From a virus (lineage: Duplodnaviria > Heunggongvirae > Uroviricota > Caudoviricetes): 52,839 nt of DNA. The position numbers were made by a program. Shown in pieces: positions 3,001 through 9,000 of this stretch. Location of the stretch: the IMG/VR virus record IMGVR_UViG_2880372215_000003; one strand, 5' to 3'. Every line of letters starts with the position of its first letter. Position 1 is the stretch's first letter.

Positions 3001-6000
3001 GCGCATCTCTGCCTGAATTTCGGGCCATTTGGCACCAGGCTTACATTTATGCTTAACCCACCCGATGGCATGCAGCTTAAGCTCCGGATACATAGCGTTA
3101 ACTTCTGGCATTTTCATCAACGCTTCAACGATATGGCCGTCGAATGTTGCCATGTCTTCCTGCAACAATTCCTGTGCGCTAATCACCATATCAACAGTGA
3201 TGTTTTCACATGTGTCGAACTTAACCATGACAGCGTTCTGTACTTCAGGGGCCAGGTTGTCAAAAGTGACGTTCATCGGATCGGATTCAGTCTCGACCGG
3301 GACAAAGGAAGCAGACGCCTCATCCCAGCGGTTTTCCTGCATATATTCAGCATCCCAGGAATCGAGGGCAGGGCGGGGTATACCGGGTTTATCCTCGCAA
3401 ACAAGAAATTTATAAGCGCAGTCCTGAGCAGCCGGATAATGTTCCAGGAATTGCCAGTGAAATTTTGCGCGGGCGCGACGTTCATCACCGGCTTCAATGG
3501 CAGTGGCTACAGCGACGGCACCTTCTTCCTTTATTGCCTGTTCGTCCGGAATGGCGGCGCAAATAAAGACTTTACTCATTTTGTTTTACCTCATTACAGA
3601 TTTAAGGGTGAACAAATCCCTGCCATTGCTGGCATATAAGAATGAAATCGGATGTTTATTACGGAACTGTTTTAAAGACCTGCCGGGATTTCGTTATTAT
3701 CCTGGTGAATAACTTTATCGACCGGGTAACAGTTACCGGGAATTTTCTGTTCGGTTGCTGCAGTCACACACTCCTGCATTGTCCTGTGAACACTGACTGC
3801 AATATCAACTGGCTCTCCGGAAACAAGAAAAACTGTCAGAACAAGTGCAAATGCTGTATTCATTGCCAGCATCCTTTTTGTATCGGACGTAAACGGGCCA
3901 GCATTGAAAGAATGCATATTTTATTTAATAGCTCCCGTTCGTGTTTTCTCTTGTTAATGGCATCTTCAGTAAATACAGGGTTACTGATAGTGACACCAAT
4001 TTCAAAACAACCTTCAGACGTATTAACGTTTGGTAATAACGTTTCCATTATCGCGTCCTCAACAATGAATTTTGTGATGCGGTGCCTGGTGCCTCCAGGT
4101 GACGTTAACCAGTTAACAATTAACGCCGGATACAGAGAATCCCCCCATAACACTGTTTTTGGTTTTAACTGTTCCGCGTGCGCTCAGCCGCATTCACCGC
4201 ATCACAAAATTCACTTTAAAAAGGGCGGCAGAGCAGTCACGGAGTAAAACTGATACCGCCAAACGTCACCAGAAAATTGATAACAGAGGGCGTTGCAGCG
4301 GGGTTGTCACTTAAGCGTATGGTCAACCTGACAACCCGGTGTCCTCAACGGGGGAAGGAATAACCCCTCCATACTTACCGCCGCGCCATTTCGCGGATTG
4401 CCACAACCGGAAGCGCACGGTCGACGAAAATTTAACGACAGGCTATCTATGAACCAGCTACCTCGCCGTGCGCTTTCGCGTTATGGTCTGACTTTTCAGG
4501 GAAATATCCTTTCAGTAAACTGTCAGTGCCGTATGCTCACCCGTGTCCGGCGCACGCACTCCACCTCACCCGTGGAGAACTCCTTAATTACCAACCTTAG
4601 CTTCGTTGGTTAGCTATTAACGCGGGTATGTAATCATTCTGGCAATGCTTAATGCCGCTGCTTTTTCCAGATTGGTGATATCCTGCTCCAGAGCGGACAG
4701 ATTTTCAGCCTGCTTAGCCCTGGCTTCATTGGCCCATTTCAGATCCTGCGCTGCATTAATTTTCTGGTGCATCCACTCATAAAGTTCATCATCGGTATAG
4801 TCTGGCGCGATGATGACGGGTTCTCGTTTCTGCATGTCGGCTCCTTGTGGTTAGCGTTGCCTGCTTTTAACCACGTCAGGCGAGGTGGTATCCTCTGAGG
4901 GGTCTGTTACTCGAGAGGAAATTGGTTATGAATACAATCAAGTTTTCTTGCCCAGAATGTGGTGGCGAAGTCTTTGACACATCCTTTAAGCCGCAGGGCT
5001 CTGACAGTTTCGCGGGAGCCATCTGCAAAAATTGTGGTCACCTTGTAACTGAAGATGAGTCCTCGCAGTTCGATGACGAAATCGTTGACAATATCTTCGG
5101 TGCACTCACCAGAGACTTTCTGAAGTAAAGGCGCATACCGCTTAGTTACCGCTCTGATAACTCTTACCTGTCCTGCAATGGCGCTGATGTCAATATAAAG
5201 CGCCATTGCTGCTTCTTTGCCGATCCCGGGATGCCTTCCATTCTGATGTTTGACTTCGCCCACTGAGAAACCCTCTGTTTCCCCTTAACGCCGGGGTAGC
5301 GGAACAAAAAACTGCTGCATAGTTATTAAAGTTGAACCCTGCCGTCATGTTCATACGCCTCGGGCTGGCTACTTAACCCCTGACCACTGCCGGGTAACTC
5401 GAAGTATTTCCCTGCGTTCTGTGGGGCGGGGTGGGTTGGTATTTTTAGTTTAATAAACATTAAACTTAAGTCAAGTAAAAACTAAACCGCGGGACATAAC
5501 AAACACAACGCTTTTGATAAAGTCGTTGCGGTTGTTATGTTTCTATTGGTAGTGAAAGTTAGGGAAACTGGCGTCTTGCGTGGATCACGTTTACTACTTC
5601 AACGCTTGATGTTGTTACGCGGTATAGAATTATATAGTTAGGGTGGGCTACAATCTCACGCAAGCCAGGTACTCTGTCGCTTGGTGGGTATAAATACGGA
5701 TGTTCGGATAACGGCAGCACACAACCCCTTAATCGCTGCCATAAGCGTTCAGCCGCATCTATGTCGAAACGAGCAATATAACTAGTTATATCATCTAGGT
5801 CGGTATCTGCGCTTTCAAGCCATAACACGGGTAACATTTTACTGCTTGCTCCGTTCCTTGCGCATCTTAGCAAAGCGTTCTGCCATTCTGCGCTCAACTT
5901 CGTCATGGGGAATTGCTGGGCGCGGATCTGCAAGGCTCGTTGCTACTTTCGCACGCAGCCATTCGTTGTAACTGTTTTCTTGTTCAATGGTTTCAAATTC

Positions 6001-9000
6001 AGAAACCATTGGTGAAAGGGCTCTATTCATGTTTCCTCCGGTTTTATAACTCAGGCGCGGCGGCATTTTTGCGCCGCAATCCATCTCGCTATGAGATCTT
6101 CCATTGATTCTTTTTTCTGCTTTAACTCGCTGATTATCTGGCGTTGCTCATCCTCAGGGAAGGCTGAAAAAATCTGCAATAATTCCAGTTGATTAGACGT
6201 TAACCCTGCATGTGGTGGAGAACCCCCCGGTTGTTCTGCGTATTCCGCATCCAGATACCCTTCCGGCATCCCGTATGTTTGCTCTATTCTTCTGGCAGCC
6301 TTTTCTCCAAACGAGGCTCTCCCACTCATTAGTTGAGATAGGTAGCTCTTCTCTTTGGGTGGCAGAGTTTTATCTTTAAACCACTCCTTGAGACGTAAAC
6401 GGCGAATTTCTTTTTTTTGCATGTGGTAATTATCTTTAGTAATCACTAAACAAGCAAATACTTGACTTAATGGTTTATTAAACACTAAACTCGCAAAAAA
6501 ACACTAAACCGAGGAAGGTATGACATTAAAAGAGTTTATTAAATCATTAAGGGTTGGTGATGCTAAGAAATTCGCGGCCAGACTTGGTGTATCGCCATCT
6601 TACTTATCGCAAATGGCGTCTGGACGAACAGCTATATCTCCAACCCGCGCCCTTATGATCGAATCTGCGACGGAAGGCCAAGTAAGTAGGGCGGAGCTAC
6701 GACCCCATGATTGGGAGCTTATTTGGCCTGAGTATGCGAGCGGCATTCGTTTGGGGCAAACACATGTAGTTCATGCTGAAGGTGATTGTAGTGCATGCTT
6801 ATCTGATGGAGTTGATTCATGAAAATCAAGCATGAACACATCCGCATGGCGATGAATGTCTGGGCGCATCCGGACGGCGAAAAAGTACCGGCTGCGAAAA
6901 TTACCAAAGCGTATTTCGAGCTGGGAATGACGTTCCCGGAACTGTATGACGACAGCCATCCGGAAGCCCTGGCCCGTAATACCCAGAAAATTTTCCGTTG
7001 GCTGGATAAAGACACCCCTGATGCTGTTGAAAAAATGCAGGCTCTGTTACCGGCGATCGAAAAGGCGATGCCGCCTTTGCTGGTGGCCCGTATGCGCAGC
7101 CACAGTTCTGAATATTACCGTGAGATCGTCGAACGGAGGGATCGGCTGGTGAAGGATGTCGATGATTTTGTTGCGTCAGCGGTTGTTTTGTATGACCAGA
7201 TGAATCGCGGCGGCCCGGCAGGGAATGCTGTGGTGATGCACTAAAAGCACGGTGTTCGGGGGTTTTATGAGCAGCAAGCTTCATGGTCTTGTCTGGGAAG
7301 GGTGCGCCTTCACCGGCATGATCTTATCCAGGGTGGCGGTTATGGCCCGTCTTGCAGACTACAGCAATGACGAGGGCGTGTCATGGCCTGCCATTGAAAC
7401 TATCCGGCGTCAGATCGGTGCAAGAAGTGAATCCACAGTGAAATCGGCTATTGCAGAACTGGCGAAAGAGGGCTGGCTGACGAAGGAAGAGCGTAAGGTC
7501 GGTGGGCGTAATGTAAGCAATATCTATCGGCTTAATGTGGAAAAACTCGAAGCAGCTGCTGCGGCGGCGCGTGAGTCATATAAACCGAAAAGAAAAATTA
7601 GCCCGGCAAAAAATGACCCGTTAACAGTTGACCCGTCAAATATTGCCCCCTCAACGGTTGACCCGTCAAATTTTGATGGATCAACTGTTGATAACAAACT
7701 GCCGATTAGGGGGGCGATGATTGACCCCGATCCGTCAGTATTAAAACCTGATCCGTCAGATAAAAGATCTTCTTGTCCGGACGCTTCGCAACCGGACCCG
7801 CAGACGGCTGAACAGAATTTTTTAACCCGACACCCTGACGCGGTTGTGTTCAGTGCGAAAAAACGCCAGTGGGGAAGTCAGGAAGATTTGGTGTGCGCAC
7901 AGTGGATCTGGGGACGAATCGTGAGTCTTTACGAGCAGGCGGCCAGCGATGATGGCGAGATCACGAGACCGAAAGAACCCAACTGGACTGCATGGGCCAA
8001 TGACGTGCGGACAATGCGGATGCTGGATGGCAGAACTCACAGACAAATTTGTGAAATGTTTGGGCGTCTCCAGCGGGATTCGTTCTGGGTAAAAAACATC
8101 ATGAGTCCGGCAAAACTCCGGGAAAAATGGGATGAACTGGTTATCCGCCTGGGGCGTTCGCCCGCGCAGCGTTGCGTGAATCACATTTCTGAACCGGACA
8201 CTGAAATACCGCCGGGATTCAGGGGGTGACGTGTCATGAAAAACATTGCGGCAGTTGGGGTTCTTGAACGTATTCGCAGACTTGCACCACAGGGGGCGGT
8301 TCCACCGTACCGGACGGTGGAGGAGTGGCGGGAATGGCAACTTGCTGAAGGACGAAAACGCAGCGAGGAGATTAACCGCCTGAATCATCAGGTGCGGGTT
8401 GAAAAAATCCTGAACCGTGCGGGCATCCAGCCGCTTCACAGGAAGTGCTCATTCGGGAACTACCGGGTGCAGAACGACGGTCAGCGCCATGCTCTGAGCC
8501 AGGCGAAATCCATTGCCGATGAATTGATGACCGGATGTACAAACTTCGTGTTCAGCGGTAAACCTGGTACCGGTAAAAATCACCTGGCAGCAGCGATTGG
8601 CAATCGGCTGATGGCGAAGGGGAGAAGCGTGATTATCGTCACCGTGTCCGATGTCATGAGCGTGTTGCATGACGGCTACGACAACGGCCAGTCCGGGGAA
8701 AAATTTTTACAGGAGCTTTGTGGAGTTGACCTTCTGGTCCTTGATGAAATTGGCATGCAGCGGGATACGCGCAACGAGCAGGTCACGCTGAACCAGATAG
8801 TCGACCGCAGAACGGCTTCGATGCGTAGTGTCGGAATGCTGACGAACCTGAATCACGCAGCGATGAGCACACTCCTCGGAGATCGGGTGATGGACCGTAT
8901 GACCATGAATGGTGGTCGTTGGGTGAATTTTAACTGGGAGAGCTGGCGGTCAAACGTTGGACGTCAGGGTATGTGAGAATTTTTGACGAGGTAAATTTTC

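Follow-up and report, generated by a model that had tools for sequence, protein, structure and literature searches.

Paired operator regions around the repressor and toxin-antitoxin genes of prophage CP-933P, and their conservation in related loci

The DNA considered here (the window) is the 52,839-nucleotide stretch of the IMG/VR virus record IMGVR_UViG_2880372215_000003, of which positions 5300-6900 share 100% identity with many Escherichia coli O157:H7 chromosomes and correspond to the immunity region of CP-933P, a cryptic lambdoid prophage known as Sp12 in the Sakai strain. The gene map, compiled from the RefSeq annotation of an identical genome, a list of open reading frames (ORFs), Pfam and Rfam, places the gene for the CI-like repressor PaaR2 at the head of a packed minus-strand cluster with the antitoxin gene paaA2 and the toxin gene parE2 (gaps of 20 and 1 nt), which is the organization of three-component paaR-paaA-parE modules. 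On its other side, paaR2 is separated by 97 bp from the divergent gene for the Cro-like regulator YdaS, which is followed by that of the CII-like regulator YdaT. Two elements bracket the repressor-antitoxin-toxin block, a right one (OR) between paaR2 and ydaS and a left one (OL) beyond parE2, and these are very probably the OR and OL promoter/operator regions of a lambda-type immunity switch. Both have already been described and characterized by experiment (Jurenas et al. 2021, mBio 12:e02947-21, PMC8630535), and the interpretation reached earlier by a model from the DNA alone (the sequence-only reading), namely that a promoter/operator element duplicated on both sides of the block places both early promoters under one repressor, is supported. 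The window coordinates, the statistics, the cross-genus conservation of OL and OR, and the picture of a cargo slot between repressor and OL are new here.

The TTGACT...TAAACT promoter that had been read in front of the cro-like gene is the published PR933P, and the start mapped by 5′ RACE (rapid amplification of cDNA ends) fits its hexamers (PMC8630535). PRM933P lies back to back with it, so that divergent genes, opposed promoters and operators are combined as in lambdoid switches. The hexamers predicted here for PRM933P place the start on the first base of the paaR2 ATG (6422), and hence a leaderless mRNA, in agreement with the published start, and its TTGCTT -35 is kept in relatives. The operator published as IR1 sits between these hexamers, and the left halves of the published IR2 and IR4 show no conservation (PMC8630535). 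The three repeat copies that had been noticed at this element were recovered by a motif search of the whole window as CACTAAAC, which occurs there in three exact copies, all on the plus strand and inside 66 bp (6444-6451, 6483-6490 and 6502-6509). Their number alone is not significant, with at least three matches in 10 of 100 shuffles, but their clustering is, any 8-mer being found three times in 99 of 20,000 composition-preserving shuffles of the 97-bp intergenic region. An operator-like sequence with two mismatches, GTTTATTAAATCATTAAG, is also present in the first codons of ydaS (6531-6551), where it pairs with 6466-6486 as a 21-nt inverted repeat (86% complementary), and Klebsiella phage 5 has a similar site at the matching position. 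This may reflect either coding conservation or an extra weak operator.

OL constitutes a second operator cluster with an outward promoter, PL933P, beyond the repressor operon, as is found in lambdoid switches. It had been described as a reversed copy of the right element at 5461-5500, facing the dicB operon. The element is real and its promoter does face the dicB side, with ydfC, DicF and dicB downstream on the minus strand, but the -10 (5447-5452) and the exact operator (5448-5465) lie partly outside that interval. The reversal likewise holds in part, applying to the promoter hexamers and the -35 flank but not to the ACTAAAC at 5481-5487, which reads on the same strand as the OR copies. This is the fourth ACTAAAC besides the three at OR, a number reached in 59 of 100 shuffles and therefore not significant. 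Rfam returned no RNA family at either OL or OR.

Table 1. Features of the CP-933P immunity region and fragments used in published experiments, in window coordinates
Feature	Position	Strand	Description and evidence
OR region	6423-6519	strandless	97-bp paaR2-ydaS intergenic region; divergent PR933P and PRM933P with operators; equals the published mobility shift fragment
PR933P	6462-6491	+	-35 TTGACT (6462-6467), N18, -10 TAAACT (6486-6491); promoter scan; drives ydaS-ydaT
PRM933P	6429-6457	-	Predicted -35 TTGCTT (6457-6452), N17, -10 GATAAT (6434-6429)
Operator over PRM933P (published IR1)	6434-6451	strandless	CTTTAGTAATCACTAAAC; one mismatch to GTTTA-N8-TAAAC
Exact palindromic OR operator (published IR3)	6473-6490	strandless	GTTTATTAAACACTAAAC; covers PR933P spacer and -10
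Half-conserved operator (published IR4)	6492-6509	strandless	Over the PR933P start region; only the right half CACTAAAC (6502-6509) conserved
PL933P	5447-5474	-	-35 TTGACT (5474-5469), N16, -10 TAAACT (5452-5447); promoter scan; leftward to ydfC, DicF and dicB
Exact palindromic OL operator	5448-5465	strandless	GTTTAATAAACATTAAAC; covers PL933P spacer and -10
Second, degenerate OL operator	5470-5487	strandless	GTTTAGTTTTTACTTGAC on the minus strand; right half contains the PL933P -35
Stem-loop	5494-5540	-	Between parE2 stop codon and OL; 22-nt arms, 82% complementary
paaR2, CI-like repressor	6051-6422	-	123 amino acids; ORF list, RefSeq
paaA2, antitoxin	5839-6030	-	Pfam PaaA2, e-value 1e-19
parE2, toxin	5559-5837	-	Pfam ParE_toxin, e-value 1.9e-16
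ydaS, Cro-like regulator	6520-6822	+	Pfam YdaS and HTH_3
ydaT, CII-like regulator	6819-7244	+	Pfam
Zinc-ribbon gene (ECs_2282 family)	4928-5128	+	
ydfC	4617-4835	-	RefSeq annotation of identical genome
DicF small RNA	4223-4274	-	Rfam DicF, 76.7 bits, e-value 6.8e-16; upstream of dicB
dicB	3860-4048	-	RefSeq annotation of identical genome
Published mobility shift fragment	6423-6519		Primers FL1 (6500-6519) and FL2 (6423-6444)
Published footprint fragment	6373-6561		
Published PR fragment	6422-6495		
Published PL933P-gfp reporter fragment	5441-5558	-	Primers F-PL-SacI (5538-5558) and R-PL-BamHI (5441-5462)
Published cloned immunity region	5264-7266		

Both elements are built on one unit, the 18-bp palindrome GTTTA-N8-TAAAC, which occurs exactly at only two places in the 52.8 kb, once in OL and once in OR about 1025 bp apart, and with one mismatch over PRM933P. 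Palindromic operators of ~17-18 bp suit a helix-turn-helix dimer, as in lambdoid switches, and the sharp consensus obtained can be used for the design of operator mutants. The -10 of both outward promoters consists of the right half-site followed by T (TAAAC+T), and in the degenerate second site the right half likewise supplies the PL933P -35 (TTGAC+T). As such, half-sites double as promoter hexamers, and a bound protein must therefore exclude RNA polymerase. A repeat finder also gave a 12-bp sequence, TACTTGACTTAA, repeated perfectly in inverted orientation (5466-5477 and 6459-6470), and a family of five 14-mers that end in TAAAC.

A likeness of this kind could arise by chance between two AT-rich intergenic stretches, the left of which would then have no regulatory role, and both the unremarkable word counts and the low G+C content of the two regions (31% and 25%) would be in keeping with this. 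When OR (6423-6519) was aligned locally to every 150-bp chunk of the window (n = 2094, both strands), OL was, however, the top match (score: 37; background: 13.9 +/- 2.7, standard deviation), and this score was reached by none of 2000 OL shuffles. Exact operators furthermore occupy both of these positions in 20 of the 29 related loci, none lying elsewhere in the 29, and the left promoter is published as active and repressed approximately 100-fold. The probability of a chance resemblance is therefore negligible, this explanation having already been refuted by these results. The second-best OR match in the window (score: 31) is CAAAAAAACACTAAC at 37030-37047, a near copy of OR segment 6495-6509, and its likeness to OR is probably due to chance.

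Since the operators are palindromic, OL and OR can be aligned either way and their relative orientation is ambiguous. In CP-933P the best alignment is direct (5448-5492 against 6473-6515; score: 37), with the inverted alignment scoring 30, and a strict inverted duplication was as such rejected for this prophage, although the inverted alignment wins in most relatives.

The promoters PR933P/PRM933P and PL933P, the last with operators designated OL1-3, are described for this same DNA in the accessible text of Jurenas et al. (PMC8630535), and all of the published primers map onto the window without mismatch. The checks that the sequence-only reading had proposed, namely binding and footprinting with the 6051-6422 product and reporter fusions to both promoters, are thus in print with positive outcomes, the binding assays having been performed at OR. 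Specific shifts of OR in electrophoretic mobility shift assays are reported for both PaaR2 and YdaS, as are DNase I footprints at OR, spanning 78 bp with PaaR2 and 65 bp with YdaS, and a palindrome half-site consensus of GTTTAGTAA (PMC8630535). Starts for PR933P and PRM933P were mapped by 5′ RACE, that of paaR2 falling on the A of the ATG and giving a leaderless mRNA (PMC8630535). PR and PRM are repressed by PaaR2 and by YdaS, with PRM activated at low PaaR2, and PL933P, whose -35 and -10 are identical to those of PR933P, is repressed approximately 100-fold by either protein in gfp fusions (PMC8630535). Each protein represses alone in a host without the prophage, and their competition leads to bistability with two heritable states (PMC8630535). 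The postulated control of both early promoters by one repressor is thereby borne out, since the 6051-6422 product binds OR and represses both PR933P and PL933P, its binding to OL being known via in vivo repression (PMC8630535). Co-transcription of the toxin module with the repressor was also correctly anticipated, as PRM933P drives the expression of paaR2, paaA2 and parE2 as one three-gene operon (PMC8630535).

These data are consistent with a mechanism in which PaaR2, the CI analogue translated from the leaderless PRM mRNA, would bind the exact sites over PR and PL and shut off both the rightward transcription of ydaS-ydaT and the leftward transcription of ydfC-DicF-dicB. Through the weaker one-mismatch site over PRM, the repressor would activate its own promoter at low concentration and repress it at high concentration. 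The Cro analogue YdaS would compete for the same operators, generating bistability, with paaA2-parE2, located in the slot that separates the repressor gene from OL, carried on the paaR2 transcript. Judging from the operator sequences, the exact palindromes over the PR and PL -10 would be the high-affinity sites and the PRM site a weaker one, which would explain the published order of effects. We likewise infer the half-sites contacted by each protein, direct binding at OL, looping between OL and OR, and the end of the operon transcript at the 5494-5540 hairpin.

Most type II toxin-antitoxin modules autoregulate through binding of the antitoxin to palindromes in their own promoter, and the repeats could accordingly be operators for the toxin-antitoxin complex, with PaaR2 in a merely accessory role. 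PaaA2, however, has no DNA-binding domain. Its only Pfam match is PF21217, a 33-position toxin-binding 'stability determinant', unlike the DNA-binding antitoxins of such modules, and no DNA-binding motif is reported for it (PMC8630535). Given that the same sites also occur in relatives devoid of any toxin-antitoxin module, and that PaaR2 and YdaS alone repress in a prophage-free host, operators of the toxin-antitoxin complex are a highly improbable explanation.

Conservation of the repeats in related prophages had been named beforehand as a refuting test, and it proved to be strong. A PaaR2 scan with one genome per species yielded 27 loci (43-76% identity), including those of Photorhabdus, Xenorhabdus, Yersinia, Erwinia, Morganella, Raoultella, Enterobacter, Arsenophonus, Winslowiella, Massilia, Mycoavidus and others, to which the phages Evi (98%) and Klebsiella phage 5 LV-2017 (45%) were added, for a total of 29 loci and 174 kb. 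Of the exact GTTTA-N8-TAAAC sites in the 174 kb, 27 lie just upstream of the repressor gene and the other 21 downstream of it; the average in block shuffles is ~0.3. The upstream site is present in 27/29 loci, at -66 to -376 from the repressor start and mostly at -66 to -68, the position equivalent to that in OR, the downstream site in 21/29, and both in 20/29. At approximately -29 from the repressor start, most relatives also have a one-mismatch site homologous to that over PRM933P. Every downstream site is followed by T (TAAACT) and all are oriented away from the repressor, with TTGAC or TTTAC ~17 nt before, inside a degenerate second site, the sole exception being one locus (L027) with TTGCC. 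The two-site OL arrangement is kept at a spacing of 22-24 bp, and in most relatives the whole PR module, comprising operator, spacer and -35, is duplicated in inverted form.

The distance of OL from the repressor start varies between 0.45 and 2.3 kb. In many loci the repressor stop codon and OL are only 65-145 bp apart, without room for cargo; such empty slots, followed by the same OL/PL module, are found in Klebsiella phage 5 LV-2017, Escherichia sp. ESNIH1, Raoultella and Enterobacter. Among the 29 loci, paaA2-parE2 occupy the slot only in CP-933P and Evi, and elsewhere it holds unrelated genes, including those for a DUF4236 protein, an Arc/RHH protein and a coiled-coil protein. These observations bear on whether the left copy, rather than being an ancestral operator, arose as a duplicated junction when the paaA2-parE2 cassette was inserted. 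Such an origin would account for the bracketing of the toxin-antitoxin block by the two elements and for the direct OL-OR alignment that is best in this lineage and includes a flanking CCGNGG, and insertion of the toxin-antitoxin module into the immunity region has indeed been proposed (PMC8630535). Cargo-free relatives nevertheless carry the same OL/PL module, and OL therefore predates the insertion, the toxin-antitoxin genes having landed between the repressor and an existing OL. We consider it very unlikely that the left copy is an insertion scar. The operator pair kept from Klebsiella to Massilia, the empty slots and the homologues with a Peptidase_S24 domain described below lend modest added support to the published insertion idea.

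In Photorhabdus and Xenorhabdus (L004-L010, L016 and L017), a gap of ~290-330 bp precedes OL, at approximately +370 to +660 from the repressor start, and contains no ORF of at least 35 amino acids except one of 59 amino acids in L004; a small RNA or a very short gene might reside there. A large duplicated stretch (alignment score: 98) is additionally found upstream of the L016 repressor. The repressor of a Neisseriaceae locus (L029) shares 64% identity with PaaR2 over residues 4-59, but GTTTA-N8-TAAAC is absent from this locus and its upstream region has another palindrome-like sequence, AAAACTTTTAGTAAAGTTTTT, suggesting that its operator specificity may have changed.

Several homologues are longer (210-222 amino acids) and combine the PaaR2-type N-terminal domain with Peptidase_S24 on the same operators (L019 of Yersinia aleksiciae, L022, L023 and L028; 46-76% identity over the matched N-terminal segment). 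They are therefore bona fide cleavable CI-type repressors, and one operator specificity is thus paired with two different C-terminal domains. This is relevant to a role that could be additional to direct promoter repression, in which the main function of OL would be that of a distant contact for PaaR2 octamers, so that the ~1-kb paaR2-paaA2-parE2 block is looped out and PR repression and PRM autoregulation are tightened, as in lambda. PaaR2 octamerizes in solution, an analogy with CI that was raised by the authors (PMC8630535), and the exact operators, ~1025 bp apart in CP-933P, are kept as a pair across genera at variable distance. The literature, however, reports no looping experiment, and the S24 homologues use the same operator pair, so that pairing is independent of the PaaR2-type C-terminal domain. 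We regard such looping, which is compatible with an OL/OR switch, as a real possibility that falls somewhat short of an even chance. More tentatively, the GTTTA-N8-TAAAC pair might be an ancient and portable immunity cassette, serving cleavable S24 and non-cleavable repressors across Gamma- and Betaproteobacteria and providing, between repressor gene and OL, a defined cargo slot that received paaA2-parE2 and, in other loci, further small genes; octamer looping in CP-933P would then couple toxin-antitoxin expression to the state of the loop.

Some points weigh against reading the two elements as OR and OL of a lambda-type switch. PaaR2 has no Pfam match and no S24 domain, a peptidase motif is likewise reported to be missing, and the prophage does not respond to mitomycin C and is not SOS-inducible (PMC8630535). 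Given the lack of an autocleavage domain and of SOS induction, PaaR2 is not a canonical CI. OL, moreover, does not show three clear sites but a single perfect palindrome and a degenerate one; no clear third palindrome could be read upstream of 5487, where 5488-5512 does not fit, and the OL1-3 named in the accessible text of Jurenas et al. follow a different, 'pseudosymmetric' definition (PMC8630535). According to these authors, direct 'pseudosymmetric' repeats are also possible (PMC8630535), which leaves room for more than one recognition sequence. The first protein-coding gene downstream of PL933P is on the opposite strand, and the accessible papers report no direct binding of PaaR2 or YdaS to an OL fragment, only in vivo repression from plasmids. 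The repressor and Cro assignments are nonetheless shared by structural entries, those of the PaaR2 N-terminal domain (PDB 7nkv, 8c3k and 8c3l) being titled 'Phage repressor protein CI' and those of YdaS (PDB 8c7k and 8co2) being named 'Cro'. The published N-terminus of PaaR2 is MQKKE (PMC8630535).

Compared with phage lambda, CP-933P shares the divergent PR and PRM beside the repressor gene, an OL cluster with an outward PL downstream of the repressor operon, repression of promoters at both regions by the same repressor and the same Cro, a leaderless repressor mRNA and an octamerizing repressor. Accessory genes are co-transcribed between the repressor gene and OL in both, these being rexAB in lambda and paaA2-parE2 in CP-933P, a substitution included in the lambda analogy drawn by Jurenas et al. 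together with CI-like octamerization of PaaR2 in solution (PMC8630535). The cargo of CP-933P is, however, a ParE-type toxin-antitoxin pair, and its repressor, unlike lambda CI, has no S24 autocleavage domain and is not SOS-inducible. Lambda operators are 17 bp long with three at OL, whereas those of CP-933P are 18-bp GTTTA-N8-TAAAC sites with one perfect and one degenerate copy at OL; the OL-OR distance is ~2.3 kb in lambda and ~1 kb in CP-933P, and no N gene is evident downstream of the CP-933P PL. The sequence-only reading correctly recovered an experimentally validated lambda-like OL/OR architecture.

In the Qin prophage of E. coli K-12, DicA/DicC act over dicBF, and a prophage repressor similarly silences the promoter of a ydfC-DicF-dicB-type cell division inhibitor. 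The paaR2 gene occupies the position of dicA, but repressor and operator sequences are presumably different. The region of CP-933P explains the silencing of the cell division inhibitors DicF and dicB in a defective prophage, as well as the way in which the lysis-lysogeny switch of a prophage came to govern a ParE-type toxin-antitoxin pair. Three-component paaR-paaA-parE modules were reportedly described by Hallez and co-workers in 2010 (Hallez et al. 2010). CP-933P resembles them in the gene order paaR2-paaA2-parE2, in an antitoxin without a DNA-binding domain and in regulation from the first gene, but its regulator is the prophage CI analogue and its operators are the prophage OL and OR. The 'third component' is accordingly more aptly regarded as host-phage circuitry than counted within the toxin-antitoxin cassette, and there are relatives that keep the repressor with its operators but carry no toxin-antitoxin pair.

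Between the parE2 stop codon and OL, the minus-strand RNA of 5494-5540 is predicted to fold into a stable hairpin (free energy: -29.7 kcal/mol; z: -4.66), with none of 200 shuffles as stable. It is not directly followed by a U-tract, and on the plus strand it is followed by TTTCTATT. The hairpin, which lies just before OL, probably marks where the paaR2-paaA2-parE2 transcript stops, like t_imm of lambda, and it may act as an operon terminator or as a bidirectional terminator. A mir-4703 match to it (Rfam; e-value: 0.67) was dismissed as meaningless.

Downstream of PL933P, the zinc-ribbon gene at 4928-5128 is the first conserved protein gene and is convergent with the promoter. The same convergent arrangement occurs in Klebsiella phage 5 LV-2017 (L003, 3167-3397; 29% identity; e-value: 4e-11). 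A 118-amino acid minus-strand ORF (4907-5263), annotated in phage Evi, was considered as the first PL gene and rejected, since its frame is not conserved (e-value: 0.12) and the opposite zinc-ribbon frame is. Transcription from PL would as such run antisense through the zinc-ribbon gene.

On the other side of the block, an operator of YdaT, termed OM, has the pattern TTGATT-N6-AATCAA (PMC9986795) and is present as TTGATTCATGAAAATCAA at 6812-6829, where it covers the stop codon of ydaS together with the start codon of ydaT. Rfam additionally gave a sub-threshold STnc100 match over the dicB region (4016-4225) and identified the sok antitoxin RNA beside hokD (11120-11294; 116.9 bits).

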